Below are positions 6,348 through 23,774 of a stretch of DNA of 41,501 nucleotides, piece by piece. Each line of letters starts with the position of its first letter. Positions within the stretch are counted from its first letter, which is position 1. The position numbers were made by a program, and so were the translations under genes. This stretch comes from a virus: positions 1-41,501 of the IMG/VR virus record IMGVR_UViG_3300033463_000341; one strand, given 5' to 3'. The notes under the pieces are model-generated. The model searched no databases, was not told the DNA's origin, and was given only the letters and a program-made list of their open reading frames with translations.

Positions 6348-6348
6348 A

Positions 6349-6699: not shown

Positions 6700-6700
6700 A

Positions 6701-7087: not shown

Positions 7088-7103
7088 AAACGCCCTCCTT
7101 TAA

Positions 7104-8072
7104 TTACATTGATGGTGTTGATGCACCAATTTGAATTCCTCTTAAAACGCCAGCTTTATTTGTATTCTTTAATGCTACACCTGCAACTAATTCAACTTCA
7201 CCATCTTTAACTGCTCCTGGAGCATTTAAATCAGGCATAAATGAGTTAATTACTTTTGAACCTGTTGGAGATATACCATGGAATGCGTCTAATCCTATTG
7301 TAACGGCATAAATATCAGTTTTTCCATTTGTAACTGGAACAACATCAATTGTGCTAACGCCATTATAGTATTTTCCTGCGTCCATCATTGGAATATCATT
7401 GTAAGCTTCAACTGTTCTACCGAATTCATCTCTACTTCTTGAATAATATCCAGCACGTCTTGCGGCACTTCTCATTTTAGTCAACATTTTTTCATTCATT
7501 AATAACATTGTTGGTTTACCATCTAATGCTGATAAGAATGCGTCAACTTCATCAAGTAAAGCATTATAACCTGCGTCCATTTTTTCACTTGTAGAAACAT
7601 CTACTTGTGATGTGATTTCAGTTTCAGCACCAGTTAATAGTTTATTTAATCCATCAAATTCAGTGCTTTCAACAGATGAATTACCATTAATTACTAAATT
7701 GTGGAATTCATTTGCAGTAGCTTTAATTTTTTGTTCAGTTTGGAATGCTAATTCGTCAACTGCTCCAGCTGTTCCTATAAGAACACGGTCAATTTGGAAT
7801 TTACCACCCATGATAACTGCTTTAGTTGTCTTTTCTTCTCTTTTTGCTTCACCAGCAGAATATTCACTATTAATTGTTCTTATTGCGGCTGTTGAAGGTG
7901 TTTTTAATTGTACATAACCATAAGTTAATGTAGAACCACCAGTTCCTGGTGAAATTGCGTTATCGAATACTAATTTATCAAGTAATAAACTTGAACGTCT
8001 AAAAGTATCAACAACTTTTTGGTCGACTTTATCAGCCATACCTACTTTTGCTTCAGCTAATGTTATAGCCAT
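7104..8072 (-). CDS. Major capsid protein (HK97-fold class)
   Basis: 322 aa, follows the scaffold gene, strong RBS. The sequence pattern (MAITLAEAKVG..., ...LLMNEKMLTKMRSAARRAGYY...) is typical of Firmicutes siphovirus capsid proteins. Confidence 0.85.
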   Translation of the reverse strand: MAITLAEAKVGMADKVDQKVVDTFRRSSLLLDKLVFDNAISPGTGGSTLTYGYVQLKTPSTAAIRTINSEYSAGEAKREEKTTKAVIMGGKFQIDRVLIGTAGAVDELAFQTEQKIKATANEFHNLVINGNSSVESTEFDGLNKLLTGAETEITSQVDVSTSEKMDAGYNALLDEVDAFLSALDGKPTMLLMNEKMLTKMRSAARRAGYYSRSRDEFGRTVEAYNDIPMMDAGKYYNGVSTIDVVPVTNGKTDIYAVTIGLDAFHGISPTGSKVINSFMPDLNAPGAVKDGEVELVAGVALKNTNKAGVLRGIQIGASTPSM

Positions 8073-8086
8073 AAATCATCTCTCCT

Positions 8087-8617
8087 TTAATTATTATATT
8101 TTTCATGCAACGCATCAAGTAATGATGATGGTTGGTTTGTAGGCTCTGCTTCATGTCCTTCACCTACATCAATTCTTTGTTGTGGTTCTTCTTTACGCTT
8201 TTCTGCTTCAAATAAATAATCATGTGATTTTTTTATTTCGGCGATTTGCTCATCTAAACCACTAATTTCATATTTACCATCTTTTTCCTCATAACTGATT
8301 TTATCATCAGCAATAAGTTTTGATAATAAATCAATGTCTTTTGCTTTAGTGCTTTGTAAAGCTTCTTTTAAAGCATTAGACTTTTTGAAAGTTTCTATTT
8401 CCTTATTACCTTCTGCTTTTCCTAATTCAAATTGTTCTTTTTTTATCGCTTCAATATCAACTTTTTTACTTTCCTCTATTTGGTCTTTTAATGTTTTATT
8501 TTCATCTTTAAGTTTGTCTCTTTCCTCTTTAAGCTCAGTAAAATTTTTTCCATATTCAGCCATAATAGTATTTATTAGCTCAGTATCAAGGTCTAATCCT
8601 TTCAAAAATTCACGCAT
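8087..8617 (-). CDS. Scaffolding protein
   Basis: Acidic, coiled-coil protein immediately upstream of the capsid gene. The start at 8617 (MREFLKGL) has GAAGGAGGAG upstream. The track's 13-codon extension overlaps a 5'-UTR hairpin. Confidence 0.75.
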   Translation of the reverse strand: MREFLKGLDLDTELINTIMAEYGKNFTELKEERDKLKDENKTLKDQIEESKKVDIEAIKKEQFELGKAEGNKEIETFKKSNALKEALQSTKAKDIDLLSKLIADDKISYEEKDGKYEISGLDEQIAEIKKSHDYLFEAEKRKEEPQQRIDVGEGHEAEPTNQPSSLLDALHEKYNN

Positions 8618-8641
8618 ACATTCTCCTCCTTCGCTTTTTTT

Positions 8642-8717
8642 CGTGGTCTCGTCCACGTGTGAATTAAATATATTTTGTAGTTTATCGCACTACTTACGAA
8701 CAAAGTTCTCTCGAACT
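8642..8717 (-). promoter_or_regulatory. Structured 5' leader of the scaffold-capsid operon (three hairpins)
   Basis: Minus-strand hairpins: AGTTC-GAGA-GAACT (8704-8717, GNRA-type loop), GTAGT-GCGATAA-ACTAC (8677-8693) and CGTGG-ACGAGA-CCACG (8642-8657). Confidence 0.35.
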
Positions 8718-8725
8718 CTAATTAC

Positions 8726-8734
8726 ATTATATCA
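8726..8734 (-). promoter_or_regulatory. Extended -10 promoter motif TGATATAAT (class II)
   Basis: The minus strand reads TTTTGTGATATAATGT directly after a terminator and upstream of the scaffold gene. Confidence 0.45.
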
Positions 8735-8762
8735 CAAAATAAAAAAAGTGCCAAATTGCACT
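8735..8762 (-). terminator. Intrinsic terminator after gene 8766..9641
   Basis: The minus strand reads AGTGC-AATTTG-GCACT followed by TTTTTTTATTTT. Confidence 0.7.
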
Positions 8763-8765
8763 ATT

Positions 8766-9641
8766 TTATAAATATTTTTTAACATATTCATATAGATTTT
8801 TTTTACTCATTTTTAGAGAACCAGTTAATCTTGCTTGAATTTGTTTTTCTTTGCTTTCAGGTTTTATAATTCCTCTTTCAATTTGATTTTCTACTAATAA
8901 TGTTGCTAATTGCCTACTATTCATGTTGTATAATTCTTCATTAGTATAATTAGATTTTTTTGAAACAGTTTTATTATTGCTTTTTTCAATTTTATTATTT
9001 TCGGTTTTTACTTTTCTTTCGTATTTATATCCATATTTTTCAGAATTTTCTCTTAACCAATTGTCAATATTTTTCGCTGCATCATCTAATTCTCCAACTG
9101 AACGTCCTTTTGCAAATTCTTCTTTTTTTCTTTGATAATCTGCTGCAAGAAATCCTGGTTTATGTTCATCATCGTATTTTATACTTTTATCTCTTTCTAA
9201 TTTTATAATATCTCCTTTTTGATTTATTGTTGTCATGGATTTTAAGTCATTATCATAAGCAAACATTAAATCTTCTTTTGAAAATGTACTATCATAATCT
9301 GATGTAGTTGGGTGATTATGTGTAAAATTCATATCTTTTAATTGTTCTAGTTCTTTACCTCTAAATTCTACCTTATGTTGTTCGCCATCTTTAAAAATTA
9401 TTTCTTTGCCATTGTCATCAAAAACAATTGCACTTTCTTTGTCTTGCTCCATTATTTTTTTACTAAATTCTTCAGTATTTTTATCAATAATATTTTTATT
9501 TGTTTCTTTTTTATCATCATCTTTGTTTTTTATTTCTTCTTTTTTAAATTTTCCACTATTTTTCATAGCAGTTTCTAAATCTTCACCATTTTTAATAAAT
9601 ATTCTTCTACCACCGACTGTTCTCCAAACACCATCTTCCAT
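8766..9641 (-). CDS. Hypothetical protein with a possible RadC/JAB-like metalloprotease motif
   Basis: 291 aa, RBS AAAGGAGAATAATTATG. The N-terminus is GVWRTVGGRRIFIKNGEDLETAMKNSG. The central FTHNHPTTSDYDSTFSKEDL resembles the HNHP...S..D JAB motif. Lys/Glu-rich linkers. Confidence 0.55.
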   Translation of the reverse strand: MEDGVWRTVGGRRIFIKNGEDLETAMKNSGKFKKEEIKNKDDDKKETNKNIIDKNTEEFSKKIMEQDKESAIVFDDNGKEIIFKDGEQHKVEFRGKELEQLKDMNFTHNHPTTSDYDSTFSKEDLMFAYDNDLKSMTTINQKGDIIKLERDKSIKYDDEHKPGFLAADYQRKKEEFAKGRSVGELDDAAKNIDNWLRENSEKYGYKYERKVKTENNKIEKSNNKTVSKKSNYTNEELYNMNSRQLATLLVENQIERGIIKPESKEKQIQARLTGSLKMSKKNLYEYVKKYL

Positions 9642-9660
9642 AATTATTCTCCTTTCACTT

Positions 9661-9846
9661 TTAAAGTTCTTCTATTTTATCAATACCCATTAACATAACG
9701 GCATTTTTACTTTTTAAAAATTCATATCTTTCTTTATCACAATACCAAATACTTATATTTGCTTGTCTTAACAAATCTTTACCATCTTCGTCCTTTTCAG
9801 TAGTATCGCTAAAATTAATTAATGCTTTTACTAAATAATTTTTCAT
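9661..9846 (-). CDS. Hypothetical protein (61 aa)
   Basis: Strong RBS AAGGAGGAAAATTATG embedded in the 3' end of the methyltransferase gene (32-nt overlap). Confidence 0.6.
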   Translation of the reverse strand: MKNYLVKALINFSDTTEKDEDGKDLLRQANISIWYCDKERYEFLKSKNAVMLMGIDKIEEL

Positions 9847-10351
9847 AATTTTCCTCCTTTATATAATAACCATAGTTTTGGTCCTTATATACGTTTTTTA
9901 AATATGGATACCTTTGTTTCATTAGTTCATCTGTTAAATCGTCTTGTTTGTGTATTTCATATACATTATCTTCTTCTATTCCTTGTGGGTTTAAATAAGG
10001 TACTGCCACTATCATTTCTTTACACCTATTTAAAGCATATTTTAAGACTTCTTGTGCTTCATTTGCTTCCAGATGCTCTACTACATCGCCAAATATAATA
10101 ATGTCATAATAGTCGTATTTAAAGTCCTTTATATTGACATTATAAACTTTATTATATTTACTTTCTAGATTAAAGTTATCAATGTTTGGTTTAAATACTT
10201 CTACTGCTTCTATATTATTAAAATAATCATGCATATAGTTGTAGTAAGTTCCTTCTCCTGCACCAACGTCTAGTACCTTTGCGTTTCTATCAAAGTTTCT
10301 TTTTAAATAATTTGTTATTTCTGTTTTATAAACTGCATATGATGTTGCCAT
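9815..10351 (-). CDS. Class I SAM-dependent methyltransferase
   Basis: Motif I is VLDVGAGEGTY. The downstream acidic motif is IIIFGDVVEHL. 1-nt overlap with the glycosyltransferase stop. Confidence 0.8.
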   Translation of the reverse strand: MATSYAVYKTEITNYLKRNFDRNAKVLDVGAGEGTYYNYMHDYFNNIEAVEVFKPNIDNFNLESKYNKVYNVNIKDFKYDYYDIIIFGDVVEHLEANEAQEVLKYALNRCKEMIVAVPYLNPQGIEEDNVYEIHKQDDLTDELMKQRYPYLKNVYKDQNYGYYIKEENYEKLFSKSIN

Positions 10352-12078
10352 TATATTTGTCTATACCTCCAATCCTTTAATTCGTCCCATTGTTGATTAA
10401 ACTTCTTTTGTACATATTCTTTGTATTGCTCATTCTTTGTTGTTTTGATGAAATAATACATTTCTCCTAAATGTTTATAAATGCTCATTTCCCACATTGC
10501 TTCACGTTTTGTTGTTACGCTTGTGGTATTACTTCTGTTCCATACGTGAGTTGACTCGTTCAAACAAGTAAAACTTTTTGCCTTTTCACATAACCTATAA
10601 TGTTGTACTCTATCTTCGGCAAGCGTACTTTCTGGGAATAGAGTATCTTTCATTAGTTCTGTTTTAACTACTTTTGTCCATATTGCACATACGTTATCGG
10701 TGAACGCTTGATACATATTTTCAAAGTTTGGTCTAAACGGATATAATCCCTCAACGCCGTTGCTTCCTAATTCAAATCCTAAAAACATTATATCTTCATC
10801 TTCTAAATTATCATTTATATCTTTTAATACGTTTTCGTGTTTTAACCAATCATCACTATCAATGCATACTATATAATCTCCTGTGGCTTCCATTATACCT
10901 ATATTTCTTGTTCCACCATTATATTTTTTAAATGGTACTTTTAATACTTTGTGTCCTTTTAGCATTCTATTTGCTATTTCTAAAGAATTATCTTCACTCA
11001 TATCATCAATAAATATAATTTCATAATTTGTATATGTTTGTTTTAAAACGCTACCCAAGCACTTTTCTAGCCATCTAGCATTATTATAGTTTGGAATTAT
11101 AATACTAAATTTGTAATCATGTTTTGTTACTGGCTCTATTACGTTTAACCATTCTTTTGCATAATCAGGATACTCATACTTAAATCCTTTTTTCAAGTTT
11201 TCTATTGCATCTAAATCTAAATTAGATAAATCTTTCTTTACTACATATCCTTTACCATTAGTCAATTCTTTTATTGCATTTGGAAAATCAGTACACACAC
11301 AAGGTGTTCCTAATATTAAACTTTCATACATTACCATACATTGGCTTTCATAATCTGATAATTGCCATAAGCTATCAGCCCACTTCATATATTTATACGG
11401 ATTATCTTGTTTTCCTAACCATATAATATTATAATCTTTTAATTCTTGTTTTAATTGGTTGCCATATCCTGGATATAAAATATTACTTCCAATTACAACA
11501 AATTGGTAGTCTTTGCCATACTTACTTTCACATTTGTCAAGTACGCCTTTTAATCTAGGATAACCTTTTTGAGGGTCAATTCTACTAACAATTAAGAAAT
11601 TATGTTTTTTCTTTGGTATATCAACTTTTTCTTTTGCAAGTTCTCTTATTTCTTCTGCATCAATTATATTTGGTATAACAACGCAGTCTTTACCTTTTCG
11701 TTCTTTGAACTGTTTACTTGCTTCTTCTGATACTGCCACATATTTTTTAAATGGTATAGTTTCTTCATAGTTTTCATTACTATCTATTAAACATCCATTT
11801 ATTACTTGTATGTAATTATTTTTTCTTGCTTTTACTTTCTTTAAATTATAAACCGCATCATATATAACCCAGTCAAATACTTCATCTTTGCATACATCAA
11901 GATGTCTTACATTACCAATAGTAGCCCATTTTTCAAGCATATCCAAAGGACTATCGTTGCTTGCATAAACAAATGTTATTTCATGACCCTGCTTCTTTAA
12001 ATATTTACCACGAGCATACATTGTTTTTTCTACTCCACCAGTTTCAAATGGTCGAGTATAATACATCGCTATCTTCAT
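10351..12078 (-). CDS. Bifunctional glycosyltransferase (N-terminal GT-B/GT4-like, C-terminal GT-A/GT2)
   Basis: The GT4-like half has ETGGVEK and an E-x7-E motif (YESQCMVMYES). The GT2 half has FSIIIPNYNNARWLEKCLGSVLKQTYTNYEIIFIDDMSEDNS and a DSDD (DxD) motif. The start at 12078 (MKIAMYY) has a GGGTGA RBS. The track's 5' extension would include the promoter -10. Confidence 0.85.
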   Translation of the reverse strand: MKIAMYYTRPFETGGVEKTMYARGKYLKKQGHEITFVYASNDSPLDMLEKWATIGNVRHLDVCKDEVFDWVIYDAVYNLKKVKARKNNYIQVINGCLIDSNENYEETIPFKKYVAVSEEASKQFKERKGKDCVVIPNIIDAEEIRELAKEKVDIPKKKHNFLIVSRIDPQKGYPRLKGVLDKCESKYGKDYQFVVIGSNILYPGYGNQLKQELKDYNIIWLGKQDNPYKYMKWADSLWQLSDYESQCMVMYESLILGTPCVCTDFPNAIKELTNGKGYVVKKDLSNLDLDAIENLKKGFKYEYPDYAKEWLNVIEPVTKHDYKFSIIIPNYNNARWLEKCLGSVLKQTYTNYEIIFIDDMSEDNSLEIANRMLKGHKVLKVPFKKYNGGTRNIGIMEATGDYIVCIDSDDWLKHENVLKDINDNLEDEDIMFLGFELGSNGVEGLYPFRPNFENMYQAFTDNVCAIWTKVVKTELMKDTLFPESTLAEDRVQHYRLCEKAKSFTCLNESTHVWNRSNTTSVTTKREAMWEMSIYKHLGEMYYFIKTTKNEQYKEYVQKKFNQQWDELKDWRYRQI

Positions 12079-12094
12079 TTTATCACCCAGAGTA

Positions 12095-12103
12095 ATTATA
12101 TCA
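12095..12103 (-). promoter_or_regulatory. Extended -10 promoter motif TGATATAAT (class II)
   Basis: The minus strand reads TTTTTATGATATAATTAC immediately after a terminator and 17 nt upstream of the ATG at 12078. Confidence 0.45.
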
Positions 12104-12132
12104 TAAAAATAAAAAGGTGTAAAATACACCTT
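12104..12132 (-). terminator. Intrinsic terminator after gene 12131..12487
   Basis: The minus strand reads AAGGTGT-ATTTT-ACACCTT followed by TTTTATTTTT. The stem overlaps the stop codon. Confidence 0.7.
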
Positions 12133-12487
12133 AATTAACTATCCATACATACTCAACTTCTCTATCTCGACAATCAAAAGTATCATATATTACTCCATTT
12201 TTAGAACATACTATATGGCCTCTCATTGTTATCAATAAAGTATTATTTGGGAATAAGCCAGATACATACCCTACACTTCCATTAATTCCTTCTAACCTTT
12301 GATATGTTCTATCTAGGTAGTTTGTAACAAATTCCCTTTTATCAAGTAATGTACCTTCATATTGTGCAATATCACTTAAATAATCATATACATAATCCCA
12401 TGATTTATTAGTAGCACACGAAATTGCTCTAATTACGCAGTCATCTTCATATCTATTTAATGCGTTAGCATTATAATATCGATACAT
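12131..12487 (-). CDS. Hypothetical protein, possible papain-like Cys/His fold
   Basis: 118 aa. EDDCVIRAISCATNKSWDYVY (candidate nucleophile Cys) and a later RGHIVCSKNGVIYDTFD (His then Asp). TAATG overlap with the upstream gene. The functional guess is weak. Confidence 0.5.
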   Translation of the reverse strand: MYRYYNANALNRYEDDCVIRAISCATNKSWDYVYDYLSDIAQYEGTLLDKREFVTNYLDRTYQRLEGINGSVGYVSGLFPNNTLLITMRGHIVCSKNGVIYDTFDCRDREVEYVWIVN

Positions 12488-12957
12488 TATCTCATACTTC
12501 TTTGTAATGCTTCATTTAACATTTGATGATTTTGTGGTGTTTCTGCTTCTTCGTGTAAATATTTAACAAAATCTTCTAATGATTTAACCATATATTCAAA
12601 TGATTTATCTGTTTCAGGACTAGCACCATATCTTTGGCGATTTTCCATATATCTTCCATATTCGCCAGATATTCTGTCTAAATGTTCATCGCCACGATAT
12701 TTCATATCATATCCACGTCTGCCATAAGAACCTTCGCCATAGTTTCCATATTCTCCATAATATCTTCCGTAACTATCATATCCAGGTCGTCTTGCCCCAT
12801 AGTTTCCGTAATTTCCGTAATTCATATTTTTATCCTCCTTTGCCATGTGTTTTATTTTACTTAATTTATATAAAAGTTCTAAATTATTAACATTTATATC
12901 TTCATCAAGTATATTTTTAATTTTTTCATTAGCTTTTTCAATTACTCTATCTTCCAT
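12487..12957 (-). CDS. Gly/Tyr/Arg-rich low-complexity protein
   Basis: 156 aa. The central repeat is NYGNYGNYGARRPGYDSYGRYYGEYGNYGEGSYGRRGYD, flanked by helical ends. RBS AAAGGAGTGAAAGTTAATG. Confidence 0.65.
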   Translation of the reverse strand: MEDRVIEKANEKIKNILDEDINVNNLELLYKLSKIKHMAKEDKNMNYGNYGNYGARRPGYDSYGRYYGEYGNYGEGSYGRRGYDMKYRGDEHLDRISGEYGRYMENRQRYGASPETDKSFEYMVKSLEDFVKYLHEEAETPQNHQMLNEALQRSMR

Positions 12958-12963
12958 TAACTT

Positions 12964-13140
12964 TCACTCCTTTCTTAAAAGGTTTAATATTTTTTCTTGG
13001 TTTTTAAGTATTTGTTTTAAATATTTTTCATCTTGTGTTTGTAATTCTTGCATTAAATCTCTGTTATTATAATCTTGAAATAATATTTGTAAACTTAATG
13101 CTTGTAAAAACAAACTTGTTATATCTAATTTATTATTCAT
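12964..13140 (-). CDS. Small Gln/Leu-rich hypothetical protein (58 aa, found by hand)
   Basis: MNNKLDITSLFLQALSLQILFQDYNNRDLMQELQTQDEKYLKQILKNQEKILNLLRKE. The ATG directly abuts the upstream TAA, with no clear SD, so it may be translationally coupled. Below the track size cutoff. Confidence 0.45.
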   Translation of the reverse strand: MNNKLDITSLFLQALSLQILFQDYNNRDLMQELQTQDEKYLKQILKNQEKILNLLRKE

Positions 13141-13605
13141 TTAGTTTGCTCGGCTAATGCTAAATGTGGCATTAGTAATAATTGCTTGTGTAGTTGCTAT
13201 TGGTGTTGTAGGGTCAGTTGGTGTTGGTACACTTGGCACACTTTGAACACTTATATTAGTAGTTCCTCTAGGGCATACTCTTAATTTCTTATCAAATGAA
13301 ACAGTTTCATAATCATCGGCTGCATCAATTGTTACGGCTCTAACTGTATCAGGTATTAATACGCCATCTTGAAATAAACCTATTGCCACAACTCCTGCTG
13401 TTGCTGTACTTACAGAAGCACTAAATTCTACATCATAATAACCTGTATACCCATTTCCAAATATTTTAAAATTAGGATTACCATTTGAATAATCTAGCCA
13501 ACCACAGCAAGAAGCACATCTAGTCCTAATAGTAGTTTCATCAAAAGTTACTGGACTGGCGTTACTTGGCAATACTAATGGTTCATTTATAATTGTTTCT
13601 ATCAT
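13141..13605 (-). CDS. C1q/TNF-like jelly-roll protein (BclA C-terminal-domain-like)
   Basis: 154 aa. The pattern GYYDVEFSASV....GVVAIGLFQDGVLIPDT....YETVSF...L....TTNISVQS...ITNATFSISR matches my memory of BclA-CTD/C1q-like domains. It contains a Thr/Pro-rich stretch SVPSVPTPTDPTTPIATTQ. Confidence 0.5.
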   Translation of the reverse strand: MIETIINEPLVLPSNASPVTFDETTIRTRCASCCGWLDYSNGNPNFKIFGNGYTGYYDVEFSASVSTATAGVVAIGLFQDGVLIPDTVRAVTIDAADDYETVSFDKKLRVCPRGTTNISVQSVPSVPTPTDPTTPIATTQAIITNATFSISRAN

Positions 13606-13623
13606 ATTTTATCTTTCTCCTTT

Positions 13624-13657
13624 CATAAATAAAAGAGATAGAACTATGCCTATCTCT
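13624..13657 (-). terminator. Intrinsic terminator-like hairpin after gene 13729..14553
   Basis: The minus strand reads AGAGATAG-GCATAGTT-CTATCTCT followed by TTTATTTAT, then the RBS of the next gene. Confidence 0.6.
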
Positions 13658-13728
13658 CGTTTTCCCATTAAAGGGAATTTCGTTAGCAAGTTCTCGTAAT
13701 CGAGCGTGTCGTAATCGACTATATGCTA

Positions 13729-14553
13729 TTAAATAAATTGACTTGATGTACCATATCCACAACCACATCCATTGTTGTTGCAAGTGAATATTGGTGTTCT
13801 ACCATAAACTGGTGTTGATGGTACTGGGCAGTTGCTTAATCTATTGTATAAAGCATCTACTTCTTCAATTTGTCCTTGTCTTAATTGAGCAGTTTGTGCT
13901 AATTGACTTGCTTGTAAATCTTTCATTAAGATTTCTCTTTGAAGGTCTACAATCTTATCGTTTTTAGCATCAATCTTATCTTGGCATAATTGGTCAAGAA
14001 CTCTTTGAACATTAGCAGTTTGGTTAGCAATAATATCTCTTATGCCATTACTTAATGCTTCTCTATCAGCACAGTTTTCACTAATAACAGTTGCTTTTAA
14101 GTCTTGAGTTGCAAGACGATTTTCACAGCAACAGTTCAATAACGAAGTATTTAAACCATAGAAGCCATTAGAAACTGCTGAAGTTATATCTGCTGTACTA
14201 TTGCACAACTGATTAGATAAACCATTTATAGCATCTCTATTGCCTTCTAATTGGTTAGATAAATGTAATGTGTCAAATCCATTGTTAGTGTTATTCATAA
14301 TATCTTTTTGACCATTAGACAACCAAGCAAATCCATTATCGAAACTATTTCCACCAAAGAAACCACCATTACCATTGTTTCCCCAACCACCGAATAATGC
14401 TAATAATAAGATTACCCAAATGAAGTCAGAGCCATAGCCACCAAATCCACCATTACCAAATCCACCCATCATAGGATAAATTGGATAAGCATAACCGGCG
14501 TTGTTGTTAGTTGCTAGGTCAACAGTAGGAACTATTCCTGAATTTCCATTCAT
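13729..14553 (-). CDS. Gly-rich membrane-anchored protein with a Cys-containing coiled-coil ectodomain
   Basis: 274 aa. The N-terminus has GGFGNGGFGGYGSDFIWVILLLALFGGWGNNGNGGFFGG (one TM helix in a Gly-rich context). It then has a CCC triplet (LLNCCCENR), a long Gln-rich helix and a C-terminal CNNNGCGCGYG. Confidence 0.7.
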   Translation of the reverse strand: MNGNSGIVPTVDLATNNNAGYAYPIYPMMGGFGNGGFGGYGSDFIWVILLLALFGGWGNNGNGGFFGGNSFDNGFAWLSNGQKDIMNNTNNGFDTLHLSNQLEGNRDAINGLSNQLCNSTADITSAVSNGFYGLNTSLLNCCCENRLATQDLKATVISENCADREALSNGIRDIIANQTANVQRVLDQLCQDKIDAKNDKIVDLQREILMKDLQASQLAQTAQLRQGQIEEVDALYNRLSNCPVPSTPVYGRTPIFTCNNNGCGCGYGTSSQFI

Positions 14554-14585
14554 TTTTATTCTCCTTTCTATCGGTCGCTAGTAAA

Positions 14586-14626
14586 CTTATGTGAGAATAC
14601 ATAACTAGCATATATTCTCGCATAAG
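14586..14626 (-). promoter_or_regulatory. Long hairpin in the 5' leader of gene 13729..14553
   Basis: 14586-14599 pairs with 14613-14626: 13 of 14 positions are Watson-Crick, with one A-C mismatch on the minus strand and a 13-nt loop. No T-run follows. Confidence 0.4.
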
Positions 14627-14636
14627 GCTACTAACC

Positions 14637-14873
14637 TTATTTTTGTTTATTAAACATAGACATCATATTATCCCAATTTTGTCTTTGTTGTGGGGTAAAG
14701 TTGTTTATTGTTTCATTTAACAAATCTTGTGGATTGTTATTTTTTCTTGCTTCCTGATATTTTTGAAAAGCTTGAGGATTTCTCATCTTTAATTGTTTCT
14801 CCAACTGGCTCATCATATTCTGTGGTATTTGTTGCATTTTGTTTTGTAATAGCATTTGTATTATCCCATTCAT
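14637..14873 (-). CDS. Small Gln/Asn/Met-rich protein
   Basis: 78-aa ORF that reads as a plausible protein (NPQAFQKYQEARKNNNPQDLLNETINNFTPQQRQNWDNMMSMF). Its first 45 codons overlap the 3' end of 14737..15258 in another frame, so the start is uncertain. Confidence 0.5.
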   Translation of the reverse strand: MNGIIQMLLQNKMQQIPQNMMSQLEKQLKMRNPQAFQKYQEARKNNNPQDLLNETINNFTPQQRQNWDNMMSMFNKQK

Positions 14874-15258
14874 TTTGTTTCATCTCTTTCTTTAATTCTT
14901 CAATTTGACCCTTTAAATATTCTATTTGAATGTCTTTTTCGTCTTTTGGTATTATTTCATTTAATTCATAGGTTTTAATTTCACCTTTTAAGTTTTTTAT
15001 CCATACAACAGACATATCTTTACTAAAATATGGTGTATCACCTATAACCATATCTCTTTGCACTTCTTCAAGCGATGTTGCGTATCTTATTACATCTCTA
15101 CTTGTTGGGGCTAATTGAAAGTTTTGCGTTAGATTAGTAGGTTGTGGTTGTGGTTGTTGCATTTGTGCTTTCATTCTTTCCAAATTATTTATTTGCTCAT
15201 TTAATCTATCAATATTTGCTTGTTGATTATATGGGTTAATATAGGGATTATTATACAT
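14737..15258 (-). CDS. Gln/Pro-rich N-terminus protein, unknown function
   Basis: 173 aa (MYNNPYINPYNQQANIDRLNEQINNLERMKAQMQQPQPQP...). The RBS AAGGAGAT is sequestered in a hairpin (see 15266..15291). Confidence 0.65.
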   Translation of the reverse strand: MYNNPYINPYNQQANIDRLNEQINNLERMKAQMQQPQPQPTNLTQNFQLAPTSRDVIRYATSLEEVQRDMVIGDTPYFSKDMSVVWIKNLKGEIKTYELNEIIPKDEKDIQIEYLKGQIEELKKEMKQNEWDNTNAITKQNATNTTEYDEPVGETIKDEKSSSFSKISGSKKK

Positions 15259-15265
15259 TTATTTC

Positions 15266-15291
15266 ATCTCCTTAAATAAATAAAAGGAGAT
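15266..15291 (-). promoter_or_regulatory. RBS-sequestering hairpin upstream of gene 14737..15258
   Basis: The minus strand reads ATCTCCTT-TTATTTATTT-AAGGAGAT. The 3' arm is the SD of the ATG at 15258. The 5' arm lies inside the 17-codon leader ORF. Confidence 0.5.
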
Positions 15292-15325
15292 TATATAACA
15301 AGTGTGTTTTATTACTAAATGTCAT
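15272..15325 (-). CDS. 17-codon leader ORF (MTFSNKTHLLYNLLLFI)
   Basis: Strong SD AAGGAGGTAAAAAAATG. The stop lies in the hairpin loop, and its last codons form the anti-SD arm. Confidence 0.4.
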   Translation of the reverse strand: MTFSNKTHLLYNLLLFI

Positions 15326-15357
15326 TTTTTTACCTCCTTTATACATATTTTATTACA

Positions 15358-15386
15358 AATAAAAAAACATAGTCAGTACGACCATG
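15358..15386 (-). terminator. Intrinsic terminator ending the accessory membrane/regulator operon
   Basis: The minus strand reads CATGGTC-GTACT-GACTATG (one G-U pair) followed by TTTTTTTATTT. Confidence 0.65.
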
Positions 15387-15394
15387 ATATTTTT

Positions 15395-16030
15395 TTAAAT
15401 ATTTAATCTTCCTATTAAAAAATAATAACATTTATCTAGGCATTCCTTTATTCTAGGATTTGGCATATTAAATTCTTCTGCTATTCTTTCATAAGAATAT
15501 CCGTCTATAAATCTTCTTTTATATATTAAATAAGTTTTGGTATCAACTTTTTCTTTTAATAATCTTTCGGCTTCTAGGTATTCATCAGTAATGGCATTAT
15601 ATTTTAAATAATCAATTAAAGGCTGATGCACGCTTTCGTTTTGTGGTTTCCACAATACCAAATCTTTAAAACTTGGACTTATTTCAATTTCAGCTTCTTC
15701 ATCTTCAATATCTGCATTTCCACTTAACAAAAATTTTGTATATACTGTAAAAACACAAGCAACATAAATATTTATATATGTTGAAAGAAATAGAGAACTA
15801 AAAAATAGAACTTGCATCAAAAAACATTTTAACGGTGATTTATAGTGTTTAGCCTTACCCATTATCAATGATAAAGACCAAACCACGATAATCACTAATG
15901 TATTTATTAAAGATTTATTGATAAATAATCCCAAAAGAAAAACCCAAGTTATATTAATCACAACATTGGCAATCAATATAAATATATTATTTGATTTTTC
16001 AAATAAAATACGCTTGAGTTTATCTTTCAT
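15395..16030 (-). CDS. Membrane protein: AgrB-like N-terminal module (H-x2-S-x3-C) fused to a sigma-70 region-4 / ArpU-RinA-like HTH
   Basis: 211 aa with about 4 N-terminal hydrophobic helices. The loop motif KHYKSPLKC (H62, C69) has the spacing of AgrB His77/Cys84. An acidic linker (DIEDEEAEIE) follows, then a C-terminal YLIYKRRFIDGYSYERIAEEFNMPNPRIKECL. Confidence 0.6.
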   Translation of the reverse strand: MKDKLKRILFEKSNNIFILIANVVINITWVFLLGLFINKSLINTLVIIVVWSLSLIMGKAKHYKSPLKCFLMQVLFFSSLFLSTYINIYVACVFTVYTKFLLSGNADIEDEEAEIEISPSFKDLVLWKPQNESVHQPLIDYLKYNAITDEYLEAERLLKEKVDTKTYLIYKRRFIDGYSYERIAEEFNMPNPRIKECLDKCYYFLIGRLNI

Positions 16031-16033
16031 AAA

Positions 16034-16081
16034 TTATTCTCCTTCAACGCTGTCGCAAAGACCCCACATAGTGTTAAACAT
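16034..16081 (-). CDS. 15-codon micro-ORF (MFNTMWGLCDSVEGE)
   Basis: The SD GGAAGGAGG lies 8 nt upstream, inside the last codons of 16087..16641. Its own 3' end (GAAGGAGAA) is the SD of 15395..16030. Found by hand. Confidence 0.4.
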   Translation of the reverse strand: MFNTMWGLCDSVEGE

Positions 16082-16086
16082 TATAA

Positions 16087-16641
16087 CTACCTCCTTCCTA
16101 TAAATACTCCATAAGTTATCCAAAAATGAAGTATTACAAAAGTTATGATAGTTAATGTCGCACTAAAGCCTCGTATAGTGACACTTTTTATAAATTTAAA
16201 ATCATGTTTATTCCAAAATTTATTGTAAAATTTTTCTATGTTATTAAGTTTTTCTTTAATAAATATTATAAATAAAATTAAAACAATATTAGCAATGATA
16301 ATAGTAATTATTTTAATTCCAAATAGTAAAATACATATCATATTTACTATTCCCATCAGCAAAAATGATATTATATATGTTATTAAATCTGTTATTCTTC
16401 CTTTTTTACCATACAAAACTTTTATATTTAAGTAAAATAAAATAATAAAAAGTAAGTCAGCATTAATGTTTAAATCAAATTTTGCTATGTTTTGGATTAT
16501 AAAATATTGCATTATTGTTAAAATAATAAAAATCATTCTTTTTTTACTTAATTTTTTGGTAAAAATAATAAATAAGCATAAATATATTGGCTGTAATATA
16601 CACCCTAAAATATTACCAAGTTGTAAAATTCCACTACTCAT
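16087..16641 (-). CDS. Polytopic membrane protein (about 6 TM helices)
   Basis: 184 aa, almost entirely hydrophobic helices separated by short Lys-rich loops. RBS AAGGTGAAAAAATG. Confidence 0.75.
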   Translation of the reverse strand: MSSGILQLGNILGCILQPIYLCLFIIFTKKLSKKRMIFIILTIMQYFIIQNIAKFDLNINADLLFIILFYLNIKVLYGKKGRITDLITYIISFLLMGIVNMICILLFGIKIITIIIANIVLILFIIFIKEKLNNIEKFYNKFWNKHDFKFIKSVTIRGFSATLTIITFVILHFWITYGVFIGRR

Positions 16642-16650
16642 TTTTTCACC

Positions 16651-16998
16651 TTATTTTTTTAATATGTCAGTTTTTATAACTTTCCATGTTTCTATTTTTT
16701 TGGCAAGTTTATGAATGTAATCATCTCCACCAAGTTTTTCATATATTTTTAATAAATTTAACCAGCCTTTATAAATGTAATCAGGTATTTGCCCTATCTC
16801 ACTATAAACAAAGAAAGTATTTGTTAAATTGCTTTGTAATAGCATTAACAAAGCCATATTTTGAACTTTTTCATTTTCTTCTTTGCTTTCTATTGTTTTT
16901 TTATATTCTTTGGCTTTTCCAGATAAGTAACCAAATAATCCAGTTGTAACCATTCCAACAATTGTTAAAATAGTCTTTAAAATAATTTCCTTTGCCAT
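16651..16998 (-). CDS. Single-pass membrane-anchored protein (115 aa)
   Basis: The start at 16998 (MAKEIILKTILTIVGMVTTGLFGYL) has GAAAGG upstream. The track's 21-codon extension would begin upstream of the TGATATAAT promoter. Confidence 0.6.
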   Translation of the reverse strand: MAKEIILKTILTIVGMVTTGLFGYLSGKAKEYKKTIESKEENEKVQNMALLMLLQSNLTNTFFVYSEIGQIPDYIYKGWLNLLKIYEKLGGDDYIHKLAKKIETWKVIKTDILKK

Positions 16999-17032
16999 AA
17001 TAATTACCTTTCCATTACCCTTACTGATTTTA

Positions 17033-17041
17033 ATTATATCA
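17033..17041 (-). promoter_or_regulatory. Extended -10 promoter motif TGATATAAT (class II)
   Basis: The minus strand reads TTATTTTAATGATATAATTAAAA, 35 nt upstream of the ATG at 16998. Confidence 0.4.
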
Positions 17042-17081
17042 TTAAAATAAAAAAAAGACAAGTTGTGCCTTTTTTATATGA

Positions 17082-17486
17082 TTATTTCATTATATTTTCT
17101 ATTTTTTGCCATTCTTCTTCACTAATAATGCCTCTATCATATTTTTCTTGTAAGTTATAATAACATTGTTTTAGGTATCTATTGTTGTGTTCAAAATAAA
17201 TTGGATTTGTATATTTTGCATAATTATCAAAATCTTCTTCACAAAACTCTAATATTTCATCATAATATTTATTTTGATGTTTTATTCCTCTAATAGTCAT
17301 TTGAGTATCAATTTTAGAAACATAATTCATAAAATATTCTTTACTGTATTTCATAACATAACTAACTAACCTATGTTTCAATGTGCCTTTCTCCCATTGT
17401 CTTTTAATAGCAATGCACTCACGCCATTGACTTACCAACATATCTTTTGGTAATACTGGAATTAATTTATAATGCCACAATCTCAT
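17082..17486 (-). CDS. TIGR02328-type protein related to pyrimidine-dimer DNA glycosylases (T4 DenV-like)
   Basis: The N-terminus MRLWHYKLIPVLPKDMLVSQWRECIAIKRQW matches the MRLWH..LI..LP...L..Q.REC signature as I remember it. 134 aa. Confidence 0.5.
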   Translation of the reverse strand: MRLWHYKLIPVLPKDMLVSQWRECIAIKRQWEKGTLKHRLVSYVMKYSKEYFMNYVSKIDTQMTIRGIKHQNKYYDEILEFCEEDFDNYAKYTNPIYFEHNNRYLKQCYYNLQEKYDRGIISEEEWQKIENIMK

Positions 17487-17498
17487 ATTTTATTCCTC

Positions 17499-17846
17499 CT
17501 AATTATTCTCAATAATAACCCATGGTTCTTTTTTGCCACTTGCTAACCAACCTGTTTGACCTTCATCATATATAACTTTATACCAGTTATAACTATTACC
17601 TTCGTGATATTCAACAGCCTTATATTGTTCACCTTTGTACACTTTTTTAATTACATCACTATCCAAATCAATTTCAGGTCTTAAATTAATAAACTCATTG
17701 TCAATTGTTATAGTATATATAACTTGATTTTCAAGTTTTTTAGCCTTTCTTTTTAAATCATTAGCGTAACTTACACGCCCAATTAAAGCACCAATAAATA
17801 ATGCAATTACTATGAAGCCAAACATTCTTAATTTTTCATTTTTCAT
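17499..17846 (-). CDS. Membrane-anchored bacterial SH3-domain protein
   Basis: N-terminal TM helix (FGFIVIALFIGALIG). The C-terminus YKGEQYKAVEYHEGNSYNWYKVIYDEGQTGWLASG is SH3b-like. Confidence 0.65.
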   Translation of the reverse strand: MKNEKLRMFGFIVIALFIGALIGRVSYANDLKRKAKKLENQVIYTITIDNEFINLRPEIDLDSDVIKKVYKGEQYKAVEYHEGNSYNWYKVIYDEGQTGWLASGKKEPWVIIENN

Positions 17847-17869
17847 TATTTTCTCCTCCTTCTATATAC

Positions 17870-17898
17870 ATATTAGCACTTTATAAAAAATATGTCAA
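17870..17898 (-). promoter_or_regulatory. Sigma-A-type promoter (class I): TTGACA-N17-TAATAT
   Basis: The minus strand reads AAAAAAGTATTGACA TATTTTTTATAAAGTGC TAATAT, about 25 nt upstream of the RBS of 17499..17846. It has the same A-tract/-35 context as the early promoters. Confidence 0.6.
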
Positions 17899-17935
17899 TA
17901 CTTTTTTAATACTTTTTTAATATTTAATATAAAAA

Positions 17936-17963
17936 TACAAAAAAAGAAGCGTGGTGGCGCTTC
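17936..17963 (-). terminator. Strong intrinsic terminator of the ncRNA unit
   Basis: The minus strand reads GAAGCG-CCACCA-CGCTTC followed by TTTTTTTGTATTTTT. Confidence 0.8.
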
Positions 17964-18403
17964 AAAAGGTTTTACATTAGTGCCTATTTTATAAGCACTG
18001 GACTAATGATATATTTACACATTTTAGGCTCGCTAGCCTCCCTACTTTTAGAACCTCTAAACAAGATACACTCTCGAGATAGACCTTATTCTCTTTTCTA
18101 AAGTATTGTAAATAGGTCGATTATTTATATCATCAGTACACTACCTATAAAAGATAGTGCTATATGTAGTTAGCGTCTACATATACACAAAAAAACGATA
18201 TAGACAACCCCTGTAAACTATATCTAAACAGGAGATTGAATAGTGCCTATTATAAGCACCACATAGAATAGATAAAAGATACGAACCATAGGGTTTAAGC
18301 CTACGCCTTTTCTATCAGTTGAGTTTAAATCAACTTGCATTATCTACTCTATGTGCTACCTACAATGGTAACACTCGAAAATGCAATTAGTTTTCGCTAA
18401 TGC
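17936..18403 (-). ncRNA. Candidate large structured non-coding RNA (~470 nt), class unknown
   Basis: ORF-free stretch, relatively G+C-rich, bounded by its own promoter and terminator. Many helices are readable by eye, including a 16-bp long-range stem and an H-type pseudoknot. G-U pairs occur only in the minus-strand reading. Confidence 0.6.
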
Positions 18404-18409
18404 AATTAT

Positions 18410-18418
18410 ATTATATCA
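18410..18418 (-). promoter_or_regulatory. Extended -10 promoter motif TGTGATATAAT (class II) for the ncRNA
   Basis: The minus strand reads GATGTGATATAATATAAT. The motif overlaps the TGA stop of 18416..19636. Confidence 0.5.
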
Positions 18419-19636
18419 CATCAATTTACTTTTTGCAACTTTTTTATATCCACTAACTTTCATTCTTTGTGCTTTAGTAGGTAAACCACTTATTTCACTT
18501 AATTGTTTATACTTATTTGTAAGAATTCTTATATTTTCTTGTGACTTTGCTATAAGTGGCTTATTATCACTTGCTTTGGCAAGTATTTGAATATCTTTTT
18601 GTTCTCTAACGGCACGTTCAATATTTCTTTGCATTTGTGTGCCTTCATAATTAGTATAGTGTTGTCCTTCAAATTCAAAACCATCATCATTTTTTTTAAT
18701 TATTTCTTTAAGTTCTTTATCTGTATATTCAGGTTCACTAACACCTAACACAATGCTAAATATGTAGTGATAACAATTCATTTCACTAATAGGACGATAG
18801 CCATTTTTATGGTCATGGTCTAAAGTATAAGTGTTGCCCTTATAGTCTTTTGCCTCAAGCCCACTATTTAACTTTTTATATTCTTCTATGCTAAATTGTC
18901 TACCTTGTACTTTTTCGTGGTCAATAGCCGGATTAGAGTGAACAGATATTTCATAACCATCAGCACCTATTTCTTCGCCAATAATTTTTTGATTTTCGTT
19001 ATGTAATTCCCTCAAATCACTTTTAAGTTCCATTCTAATAGCACTATCTAATCGCATACTTCTACCACTAGCGTAGTTTATAGTCCTTAAACCACTTCCA
19101 CCGACTTGTTTTAATATACCACTCATAGCTTGGTCAAATGTTTCTTTACCTTGCCCTACATTTAATAATGCAGTATCTAGCAATTCATTGTAAACATCTC
19201 TTAACCCCATAAATTTGCCATTTATAGTATAACCAAGCACATTTGAACGTGTAAAATCATACATTTTATTTTTAACTATATTAGACAATGCCATAGTTTG
19301 CGTTTTTAATGCCATATTTTGCTCGAAAGGTGTAAAAGGTATATCTTTATACTTGTAGAACTTTTCGTAGAATAATTGGTCATTTTTTGCATAATTATAG
19401 AATATATTATCTATATCAGCAATGTCTAAATTAGTATATTTGGCAATTTGTTTAACTATATCTTCGTATTTGCCACCATATTTAAGTATTTGTGCCAGTT
19501 GTTGAGCTTGGCTTGGCGTTAATTCACTTATTTTTTTAATAGAAGAACCAATACTTTCTAAAAACGTGGTATTGGCTTGTTCTATTCTATCAATTAATCT
19601 TTCAATAACTTGTTCTATTTGATTTTCAGTTATCAT
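18416..19636 (-). CDS. Head morphogenesis / minor capsid protein (SPP1 gp7 / Mu F-like)
   Basis: 406 aa, immediately after the portal gene. Size and position are typical of MuF-like proteins. Confidence 0.7.
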   Translation of the reverse strand: MITENQIEQVIERLIDRIEQANTTFLESIGSSIKKISELTPSQAQQLAQILKYGGKYEDIVKQIAKYTNLDIADIDNIFYNYAKNDQLFYEKFYKYKDIPFTPFEQNMALKTQTMALSNIVKNKMYDFTRSNVLGYTINGKFMGLRDVYNELLDTALLNVGQGKETFDQAMSGILKQVGGSGLRTINYASGRSMRLDSAIRMELKSDLRELHNENQKIIGEEIGADGYEISVHSNPAIDHEKVQGRQFSIEEYKKLNSGLEAKDYKGNTYTLDHDHKNGYRPISEMNCYHYIFSIVLGVSEPEYTDKELKEIIKKNDDGFEFEGQHYTNYEGTQMQRNIERAVREQKDIQILAKASDNKPLIAKSQENIRILTNKYKQLSEISGLPTKAQRMKVSGYKKVAKSKLM

Positions 19637-19649
19637 AGGTTATCACCTA

Positions 19650-23138: not shown

Positions 23139-23143
23139 TTATA

Positions 23144-23269: not shown

Positions 23270-23333
23270 ACAATCACCTACTTTCCTTTAATTCAATATA
23301 AATTATACCATTAAAAGTGTTTTTTGTCTATTT

Positions 23334-23594: not shown

Positions 23595-23619
23595 AGTACC
23601 CCTACCTTTTTACAATATA

Positions 23620-23628: not shown

Positions 23629-23649
23629 TAGTACGACTATAAAATCAAG

Positions 23650-23732: not shown

Positions 23733-23738
23733 GATATA

Positions 23739-23747: not shown

Positions 23748-23774
23748 TAAGTTCTTAAAAAAGGCAAGTGGGAT

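Follow-up and report, generated by a model that had tools for sequence, protein, structure and literature searches.

What is the block of some 9.7 kb that stands between the MuF-like gene and the scaffold gene of the virus contig IMGVR_UViG_3300033463_000341 (IMG/VR), and does it belong to the head module that it interrupts? The window analysed here is that whole contig, 41,501 nucleotides in length. The original prediction saw in the block an accessory insertion of about 9 kb with an early-type promoter of its own. Judged from the synteny comparisons given below, the stretch is rather an old, lineage-wide, recombining cargo hotspot whose units recombine independently, and one of these units is a portable seven-gene operon with its own control region. 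We assign this reading, the proposed mechanism included, a probability of roughly 60%. The units would be, in order, a non-coding segment, a variable unit (SH3 protein, DenV-like protein, two membrane proteins and an AgrB-like protein with a helix-turn-helix, HTH), the seven-gene operon, a glycosyltransferase/methyltransferase pair and the protein p291.

Synteny, composition and signals of the block

The block is framed by the following genes.

7104-8072, minus strand: major capsid protein (MCP)
8087-8656, minus strand, ATG at 8617: scaffold gene, downstream anchor (PF06810, 7.5e-25; phrog_194)
18416-19636, minus strand: MuF-like / minor capsid protein 2 gene, upstream anchor (PF06152, 1.5e-50; phrog_581; 34-76% identity in 68 loci)
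19650-21113, minus strand: portal

Both anchor genes and their coordinates had been given correctly in the original prediction, as the matches to PF06152 and PF06810 confirm. Between them we find 16 supported minus-strand open reading frames (ORFs) and an ORF-free gap of 569 bp (17847-18415), so that the description as a block of non-capsid genes stands, while the earlier count of about 19 ORFs has to be lowered. Membrane proteins are abundant in the block.

For the comparison, 140-odd fetched loci (L numbers below) were mapped by tblastn, and an 82-kb rumen scaffold, L148, was used with independent gene calls and Pfam labels. The relatives are IMG/VR contigs and metagenome-assembled genomes from the digestive tracts of sheep, yak, roe deer and buffalo; their genomes are labelled as Clostridia, Erysipelotrichaceae, Bacilli and similar, labels that for binned phage contigs are weak evidence of the host. 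The layout of the window, from MuF through DenV-like and membrane proteins, the seven-gene cassette and a glycosyltransferase to scaffold and MCP, is repeated in at least six ruminant-gut contigs, namely L115, L117, L118, L119 and L135 in the tblastn maps and L148 in the independent gene calls. The order found in many contigs is MuF, DenV-like protein and p136 with or without p184 and p211, then p173 to p118, then the glycosyltransferase with or without the methyltransferase and p61, and finally scaffold, MCP and window-like connectors. The identities along this layout are uneven: in L119 they are 34% for MuF, 76% for p211 and 90% for p118, and in L118 67% for MuF, 80% for the glycosyltransferase and 34% for p118. 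The spread of the sub-blocks also differs, since p291 is found in none of the loci, the SH3 protein in one and the cassette genes in 98-115. It is this combination, a recurring layout in which each sub-block has a different identity, that points to an old recombining hotspot.

The site can be nearly empty, because in L005, whose MuF is 72% identical to that of the window, only 1.27 kb with a few tiny ORFs separate MuF from the scaffold gene. A single 72-aa ORF lies between the flanking genes in L001, where MuF and scaffold are nearly adjacent. L001 is the nearest relative by its MCP, and we had considered it as a close relative of the window; this was rejected, as it is a higher-GC phage that has only the capsid gene in common. 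Flanking genes that adjoin in relatives are what one expects around a moron, yet most relatives do have cargo at the site.

These results bear directly on the possibility that a single recent moron island of about 9 kb split a contiguous head module and is expressed early from its own sigma-70 promoter. The near-adjacency of MuF and scaffold in L005 and in the distant L001 speaks for such an event, as do the enrichment of terminators in the block and a promoter match at 17870-17898, both described below. However, the same multi-unit layout with mosaic identities occurs in at least six other contigs, the sub-blocks differ greatly in distribution, and relatives lack a uniform identity across the block. 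Its composition also argues against it: the GC content at third codon positions of the block genes is 0.11-0.20 (the overlapping p78 excepted) and their codon adaptation is 0.63-0.85, both within the range of the core structural genes. The block thus does not differ from its neighbours in composition, and the expected mark of recent foreignness is missing. The synteny maps largely refute the recent island, which we regard as very unlikely. What remains of the accessory-insertion claim is that the cargo is non-core, that terminators subdivide it and that its central part is mobile; a single genome-specific insertion is contradicted by the mosaic recurrence of the layout.

Cargo at this junction has a precedent. 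In SPP1, ORFs 8-10 and oriR lie between gene 7 (MuF-like) and gene 11 (scaffold), and the authors describe the segment as having transcription signals on both sides, as comprising a non-coding element and moron genes, and as breaking an otherwise conserved order (PMC6316719). The premise that head genes are normally contiguous in such phages was thus too strong, since SPP1 itself has cargo at the MuF/scaffold junction, and Clostridium phage HMD-PC1 (L002, C. perfringens) has about 3 kb there as well. In the latter, the extra genes stand between the minor capsid protein and the pre-MCP gene (16232-19434); its MCP is of the window's type (51% identity), and one of the extra genes is annotated "DNA helicase". 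The segments of SPP1 and of the window resemble each other in their place in the head module and in combining a non-coding element with moron genes, but the SPP1 segment consists of three short ORFs, compared to 16 ORFs in about 9.7 kb here, including a seven-gene operon of hundreds of contigs. It is thus the content rather than the placement of the block that matters.

A side observation concerns the upstream edge of the block. In L030 (IMG/VR 3300031993_002260), TerS, TerL, a small ORF and the portal are 91% identical to the window in DNA (window 19614-23332), and the identity falls to 75% inside MuF, which marks a recombination boundary at the portal/MuF junction.

The block is cut into sub-blocks by five intergenic minus-strand terminators, predicted by a terminator scan. 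They are listed here together with the promoter match.

8747-8762, minus strand: terminator ending the block, overlapped by a promoter-like site at 8726-8754
12114-12132, minus strand: terminator closing the cassette, overlapped by a promoter-like site at 12095-12123
13633-13658, minus strand: terminator-like hairpin after p274, with a 10-pair stem
15368-15386, minus strand: intrinsic terminator ending the variable unit
17946-17963, minus strand: fifth terminator, in the non-coding gap
17870-17898, minus strand: sigma-70-like promoter match TTGACA-N17-TAATAT upstream of the SH3 gene, 10/12 matches with TG

The first four had been named in the original prediction and were all recovered by the scan. 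Nine terminator-like sites were found in 7-19 kb, compared to 3.0 ± 2.0 in shuffles, and five of the nine are on the minus strand and intergenic; from 19 to 39 kb there are only two on the minus strand, one of them intragenic. The promoter that had been proposed at 17870-17898 is present as a string and is intergenic, about 50 nt past the terminator at 17946-17963, but promoter-like matches as a whole occur at chance level (78 found, 78.5 expected), so that its support is positional only. By eye, the best minus-strand promoter-like matches (18410-18438, 17870-17898, 12095-12123 and 8726-8754) adjoin terminators and fall in the intergenic 13% or so of the block, a placement made by eye and not a computed enrichment. 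A consensus promoter match in DNA of 28% GC carries little weight, also for the earlier suggestion that an early-type promoter decouples the expression of the block from virion assembly.

The lambdoid morons, with their promoter-gene-terminator structure, are a further point of comparison. The likeness lies in blocks that are flanked by predicted terminators and promoter-like sites, that are present or absent, and that occur at several positions. Unlike these morons of one or two genes, the block is not deviant in composition, and in its centre stands an operon of several genes that has a structured leader and a regulator next to it.

A seven-gene cassette that moves between phages

The central unit, at 12131-15258, consists of seven genes.

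14737-15258, minus strand: p173, first cassette gene; Q/N/P-rich N-terminus, conserved core and coiled coil; 115 loci, median 59% identity; no family match
14637-14873, minus strand: p78, Q/N/M-rich protein; its gene, in the +1 frame, shares 137 nt with the 3' end of p173
13729-14553, minus strand: p274, cassette core; Gly-rich N-terminus, one hydrophobic segment, Cys-rich coiled-coil C-terminal domain (phrog_16490, 1e-30)
13141-13605, minus strand: p154, cassette core; modelled as a jelly-roll protein with a Thr/Pro-rich loop (AlphaFold2; mean predicted local distance difference test, pLDDT, 67)
12964-13140, minus strand: p58, small helical protein; 105 loci; no family match
12487-12957, minus strand: p156YG, Tyr/Gly/Arg-rich low-complexity centre between helical ends; 101 loci, also in Dulem virus 35
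12131-12487, minus strand: p118, cassette core; small Cys-His-Asp protein, modelled with papain-like topology (phrog_3754, 5e-17; AlphaFold2, pLDDT 80)

This order is kept in 98-115 loci, and the overlap of p173 with p78 (89-146 nt, in a constant frame) in all of the 68 loci examined for it. Within the overlap the p78 frame is well conserved, and the tail of p173 is variable yet open. The p274 protein has ten conserved cysteines, including an invariant CCC motif, and it is abundant: IMG/VR gives 489 matches, and in a library of 1.84 billion proteins it forms 881 clusters at 50% identity; nevertheless, the operon carries no functional annotation. For p154 there are 590 homologous clusters, the best 120 of which are 79-95% identical to the protein of the window; its Thr/Pro-rich loop is conserved, and a second subtype exists at about 40% identity. 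For p118, the best 120 of 721 homologues lie in the same range of 79-95%, and C17, H91, D102 and D105 are invariant; the model has the Cys at a helix start and the His on a strand, as in papain-like enzymes.

The boundaries of the cassette are visible in the DNA comparisons. Longer matches to other loci mostly begin at about 12065-12140, and the longest finish near 15290, close to the flanking terminators. The proteins of the cassette are often far better conserved between loci than the portal or TerL of the same contig. In 11 loci p154 is 90-97% identical to that of the window with a portal on the same contig that is only 23-30% identical, and in the cassette loci overall the portals are 23-31% identical and p154 up to 97%. 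None of the 51 loci with enough downstream sequence has the MCP of the window, and 27 share its connector gene; the cassette is thus not co-inherited with one capsid protein.

The position of the cassette varies as well. In L020 and L024 it is upstream of TerL, and profile searches found a core of three genes (p118, p274 and p154) in distant phages: its neighbours are lysis genes on one side and early genes on the other in Butyrivibrio phage Ceridwen, lysis genes and the integrase in Dulem virus 33, and MuF and MCP in Dulem virus 35, where a p156YG-like gene accompanies it. Taken together, the comparisons between loci show that the cassette moves between phages as a unit. Because of its varied positions and its independence of MCP and portal, we consider it a self-contained unit rather than part of the assembly of one capsid.

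The operon has also been exchanged between phages of the ruminant gut and of the primate gut. Its abundance, exchange and conservation, together with the covarying leader and the regulator discussed below, suggest a strongly selected and as yet unnamed function of phages of gut Firmicutes. With Ceridwen, a cultured carrier of the three-gene core exists.

We have also considered the case that the cassette is an ordinary virion module, a capsid decoration or head fibre in which a trimeric jelly-roll p154 would sit on a p274 stalk and be glycosylated by the adjoining enzymes. The commonest site of the cassette is indeed the head operon, in the same orientation and between MuF and scaffold, even in the distant Dulem virus 35, and the p154 model would fit: the compact matches that Foldseek ranks highest are the BclA C-terminal domain, BxpB, TNF and C1q (E 2e-3 to 6e-3), and the matches to PDB entries 3twi, 1wck, 8d02 and 1rj7 have root-mean-square deviations of 3.1-4.1 Å, TM-scores of 0.40-0.45 and identities of 12-16%, values obtained with a model of pLDDT 67. 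Carbohydrate-binding modules and phage fibres often have the jelly-roll fold too. The Thr/Pro-rich loop of p154 and the adjoining glycosyltransferase genes point the same way, since in some mycobacteriophages capsid glycosylation has been deduced from the presence of such genes (PMC11256854). On the other hand, the cassette is found with unrelated types of MCP, portal and TerL, it also stands beside lysis or integrase genes or ahead of TerL, p274 has a hydrophobic segment of the membrane type, and L005, a relative by its backbone, has no cassette at the site. The virion module is therefore possible but doubtful.

Concerning p118, its family is broader than the cassette, since solitary homologues occur in phages of Bacillus and Geobacillus and in Lak megaphages. 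Those of Geobacillus phage GBK2 (L146, 3947-4336) and Bacillus phage KoopaTroopa (L147, 3938-4342), at 27-33% identity, stand alone in early regions, and were dropped as evidence on the cassette for this reason. The Lak homologues are distant, and two of the records are annotated "peptidase".

The predicted control region of the cassette

We now consider the sequence ahead of p173, which contains the following elements, the box being read from the sequence.

15280-15342, minus strand: covarying leader hairpin, 63 nt, 5' AAAGGAG ... UAAAACAC ... CUCCUUUU 3' (covariance model R1, 51.8 bits, E 5.5e-8)
15347-15357, minus strand: -10-like box TGTAATAAAAT, a few nt upstream of the leader hairpin
15395-16030, minus strand: p211, AgrB-like membrane domain and C-terminal sigma70-region-4-like HTH, candidate regulator of the cassette (Sigma70_r4_2, 0.012)

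A hairpin of 55-80 nt precedes p173 in nearly every locus; it starts with (G)AAAGGAG, ends with CUCCUUUU and has the apex UAAAAC, invariant in 36 sequences. All 36 homologues fold individually as one hairpin (-11 to -26 kcal/mol), with an end of CUCC or CUCU followed by a U run. In the duplex test, the two halves of a hairpin pair with -18.4 kcal/mol, compared to -11.6 kcal/mol with halves from other loci, and for 27 of the 36 at most one foreign half outranks the own partner. The covariance model, which was seeded on three sequences of equal length and complemented by the per-sequence folding and the duplex test of own against foreign halves, detects a single copy in each locus, without exception ahead of p173, and only one in the window. 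The covariation score is 0.437, compared to at most 0.17 for slid controls, and none of 500 shuffles reaches the observed values. In the alignment fitted to the model 92.8% of the cells are paired and 15 of the 23 pairs have changes on both sides, counts that the fitting itself biases towards the model. RNAalifold was left aside because the MAFFT leader alignments (A4, A5) do not respect the helices.

The surroundings of the hairpin recur too. Of 45 loci, 37 have a T-run terminator ahead of the leader, and 37 have a -10-like hexamer (TAnnnT) within a few nt of the hairpin on its upstream side; the strict extended -10 pattern occurs in only five. By eye, most of these boxes resemble TGnnAnAAT and lack an evident -35 element. 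In most loci the comparisons show the operon together with terminators on both sides, a -10-like box and a covarying leader.

Three other searches concerning the leader gave nothing. The model has no match in the distant carriers Ceridwen (L143) and Dulem virus 35 (L144), no Rfam family matches the hairpin, and a scan of the window by regular expression and folding found no more copies at a cut-off of -12 kcal/mol, which excludes the known copy too.

Inside the hairpin is a micro-ORF of 17 codons, MTFSNKTHLLYNLLLFI (15272-15325, minus strand), whose Shine-Dalgarno sequence is well spaced. Several loci have micro-ORFs like it, some of them together with the AgrB-like regulator, but that of the window is conserved in one leader subgroup only. 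We have considered the micro-ORF as an AgrD-like peptide and dropped this option, as it is not conserved between leader subgroups and the helices are. For the same reason, helices conserved throughout and a micro-ORF in one subgroup only, the element is read as an RNA. Translation of the micro-ORF must melt the hairpin, which suggests attenuation.

Three roles are conceivable for the leader, those of a 5' stabiliser, of an attenuator and of a tandem terminator. Stabilisers at the 5' end of mRNAs of Gram-positive bacteria include the cryIIIA STAB-SD and the SP82 polypurine stabiliser, and leader attenuators are a further point of comparison. The likeness to these elements lies in a polypurine tract of the GAAAGGAG type, which is part of a 5'-proximal hairpin ahead of the first gene and stands at or close to the predicted 5' end. 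Unlike in these, the purine tract of the window pairs with the CUCCUUUU arm, the UAAAAC apex is conserved, and the element belongs to no Rfam family.

The last of the three options could account for the hairpin without any dedicated promoter or regulator: it would only end the upstream unit as a further terminator in tandem, with transcription of the cassette coming by read-through from the late operon. The anatomy of the hairpin, with an A-tract, a GC-rich base and a U-tract, agrees with this; a U-tract and a GC-based hairpin, as in an intrinsic terminator or attenuator, are present in 36 of 36 homologues, and the promoter matches are statistically uninformative. An apex that is invariant in 36 sequences, however, is not expected of a plain terminator, the hairpin travels with the cassette even where this is upstream of TerL (L020 and L024), and the -10-like box stands at a fixed short distance in most loci. 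We thus consider the tandem terminator unlikely and favour an operon with its own control.

The second component of this control would be the protein encoded just upstream. In most loci, the ORF immediately upstream of the control region encodes an HTH protein, which comes in two forms. The first comprises small proteins of 64-87 aa; six of the eight that were tested match sigma70-region-4, GerE or HTH_38 with borderline scores, and the upstream ORF of L148 has a weak GerE label. The second is a polytopic membrane protein with an AgrB part above the Pfam cut-off and an HTH-like C-terminus, and the p211 of the window is a short version of it. Against the AgrB model, the p211 of the window itself has no match, only a weak one to sigma70_r4. 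Several homologues at 75-79% identity carry PF04647. Six long forms score 31.5-37.7 bits and the short form of L004 22.1 bits, with a cut-off of 23, and the match of the family covers only positions 5-109 or so of the 185 of the profile. His62 and Cys69 are invariant in 10 sequences, short and long forms included; the catalytic pair of AgrB is a His and a Cys with this spacing of seven residues. The earlier label of an AgrB-like-HTH protein thus receives indirect support from these homologues, scores and residues.

Wherever both were mapped (L004, L032, L114 and L119), p211 is directly upstream of p173. From this constant adjacency we infer that p211, or the HTH protein in its place, controls the cassette. 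A phage protein of the AgrB family is not without parallel, as the C. difficile phage phiCDHM1 carries agr genes that include an AgrB-family membrane protein (PMC3901668). The two cases are alike in that relatives of p211 score above the cut-off of the AgrB Pfam model. In contrast to phiCDHM1, only the N-terminal AgrB part (about 105 of 185 positions) is present here, it is fused to a DNA-binding HTH, and no agrD-like or agrC-like gene was found adjoining p211; the next ORF downstream, the micro-ORF of 17 codons in the leader, lacks both Cys and a charged tail. We know of no earlier description of an AgrB-like/HTH fusion, which would represent a new kind of membrane-tethered phage regulator.

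Possible function and the rest of the genome

In the mechanism that we propose for the hotspot and its portable operon, the HTH protein, membrane-tethered in this genome, would switch on a promoter without an evident -35 element, and the leader hairpin would serve as a 5' stabiliser or attenuator. The operon would then make a protein assembly late in infection. At the core of the assembly would be p274, a Cys-rich coiled-coil protein anchored in the membrane, together with p154 and its jelly roll, with the Tyr/Gly- and Gln/Asn-rich proteins as matrix partners; p118, with its Cys, His and Asp, may process or cross-link the proteins of the assembly, and the adjoining glycosyltransferase may decorate it, probably on the Thr/Pro-rich loop of p154. 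The product would be a late-made, possibly cross-linked and glycosylated assembly, either a virion coat or a structure of the host envelope or spore surface. To this functional part we give about one chance in three.

It is important to point out what weighs against this reading, beyond the bias of the pair counts and the chance level of the promoter matches already mentioned. The leader of the window is the weakest of its family (-10.9 kcal/mol, z = -2.7), and the upstream ORFs of L020 and L024 do not resemble HTH proteins. Searches of the cassette proteins against Pfam, NCBIfam and PADLOC gave no significant match, the last two only noise, and sequence searches of the PDB gave nothing, either with p154, p118, p291 and p173 or with profiles of p274 and p118. 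Foldseek returned nothing significant for the p118 model, the best E being 0.13 and Josephin or deubiquitinase (DUB) entries following at 0.3-2.5. Only about half of the loci (37 of 70) have a glycosyltransferase-like gene in the 2.5 kb that follow p118. With no significant matches, the functional reading draws on composition, on one fold with a pLDDT of 67 (Foldseek E about 2e-3) and on the neighbourhood.

A different possibility is that the cassette is directed at the host, either acting on the envelope (superinfection exclusion, receptor masking or surface glycosylation) or, in spore-formers, on the spore surface. In Ceridwen and Dulem virus 33 the core stands at the classic cargo site, from lysis to integrase or early genes. 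The many membrane proteins of the block, the glycosyltransferase with its matches to PHROGs labelled as GtrB-like O-antigen conversion, the small GerE-type HTH genes upstream, the presence of BclA and BxpB among the best fold matches, and the Tyr/Gly- or Cys-rich proteins are all consistent with such a role. Yet p274 is the only cassette protein with a membrane segment, no obvious N-terminal signal sequence was seen by eye in any of them, and no integrase was noticed among the window proteins scanned, which were a part of the total. The link to spores in turn consists of weak, generic similarities, and Butyrivibrio, one cultured host, is not known to form spores. A host-directed cassette is accordingly improbable.

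Another option considered joins several of these elements: the cassette, the glycosyltransferases, the leader and the HTH regulator could form an undescribed self-regulated operon that builds a glycosylated coat similar to a spore coat or exosporium, on the virion or on the surface of the host or spore. The Tyr/Gly-rich, the Cys-rich and the BclA/BxpB-like components would be the parts of this coat. BclA is a glycoprotein, and the BclA C-terminal domain and BxpB, from the Bacillus anthracis exosporium, are with C1q and TNF the best compact matches of the p154 model, with glycosyltransferase and methyltransferase genes nearby in the window. Unlike BclA, p154 and p274 have no collagen-like GXY repeats, the identities are low and the E values marginal. 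We hold this elaboration to be quite unlikely; if it were true, membrane-tethered control could couple expression of the operon to a peptide or envelope signal.

We return to the hotspot and its remaining units, whose genes are listed here.

17499-17846, minus strand: membrane-anchored SH3_3 protein, 115 aa (SH3_3, 1.4e-8); one N-terminal hydrophobic segment; homologue in only one locus
17082-17486, minus strand: DenV-like pyrimidine-dimer DNA glycosylase, 134 aa (Pyr_excise, 45 bits, cut-off 23)
16651-17061, minus strand: p136, single-pass membrane protein, likely ATG at 16998 (phrog_4105, 1.2e-9); one transmembrane segment; 26 loci
16087-16641, minus strand: p184, polytopic membrane protein with about six hydrophobic segments; no family match; five loci
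10351-12078, minus strand: two-domain glycosyltransferase, GT4-type and GT2-type (Glycos_transf_2, 3.5e-27; Glycos_transf_1, 2.1e-16)
9815-10351, minus strand: S-adenosylmethionine-dependent methyltransferase (Methyltransf_23, Methyltransf_11); 79% identity in L118
9661-9846, minus strand: p61, small protein; six loci
8766-9641, minus strand: p291, near-orphan just upstream of the scaffold gene; one partial match in L135
17847-18415, minus strand: structured non-coding gap; no supported ORF; RNA fold z = -5.5

The family matches agree with the labels proposed earlier for the SH3, DenV-like (Pyr_excise, 1.4e-11), glycosyltransferase and methyltransferase proteins. The match of the DenV-like protein spans positions 1-79 of the 81 of the Pyr_excise (T4 endonuclease V) profile, above the Pfam cut-off, and the gene follows MuF in 10 loci and in L148. 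For p291, no homologue at 50% coverage or more was found in the fetched loci, nor any family or PDB match; a string HNHP...SKED in it is reminiscent of the metal-binding motif of JAB/RadC, a resemblance that neither Pfam nor the PDB supports.

The 569-bp gap, termed an ncRNA unit in the original prediction, is bracketed by the promoter-like site at 18410-18438 and the terminator at 17946-17963. It holds two units, each closed by an inverted repeat with arms of 27 nt, and the only ATG ORF in it has 38 aa (18224-18340). Three blocks of 30-40 nt, including GGUGCUUAUAAUAGGCACUA, CACUAUCUUUUAUAGGUAGUGUACUGAUGAUAUA and UAUAUCAUUAGUACAGUGCUUAUAAAAUAGGCACUA, are conserved at 88-100% identity in about 18 other loci, usually after MuF and sometimes elsewhere. 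Rfam 15 has no match to the window at the gathering score, and in the gap there are only chance-level matches (E at least 0.2). In comparison with oriR of SPP1, no evidence was found that the gap is a replication origin.

The window is the whole contig and carries an exact direct repeat of 127 bp at its two ends (1-127 and 41375-41501), a typical sign of a circular assembly; the genome is probably complete and circularly closed, at about 41.4 kb. Its GC content is 27.6%, and every recognised gene is on the minus strand. No minus-strand ORF is listed in 1-2132 because a large ORF of the tail region crosses the contig ends (region 1-2139), and the interpretation of 1-2132 as non-coding was rejected for this reason. 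A megablast search of 6000-24000 against GenBank phages gave no match. In the order of transcription, replication and recombination genes are followed by TerS, TerL, portal, MuF-like gene, the block, scaffold, MCP, connectors and tail.

The replication and recombination region, at about 24-36 kb, encodes an exonuclease-Sak4 fusion, SSB, a primase/helicase, an ERCC4-type nuclease, HNH and RtcB. Two of its products, encoded at 27966-29165 and 34391-35800, can be singled out. One is an RtcB-type RNA ligase (phrog_1075, 3e-132), present although no tRNA genes were found in the window. The other is a single protein of 469 aa that joins an exonuclease domain and a Sak4-like annealing domain.

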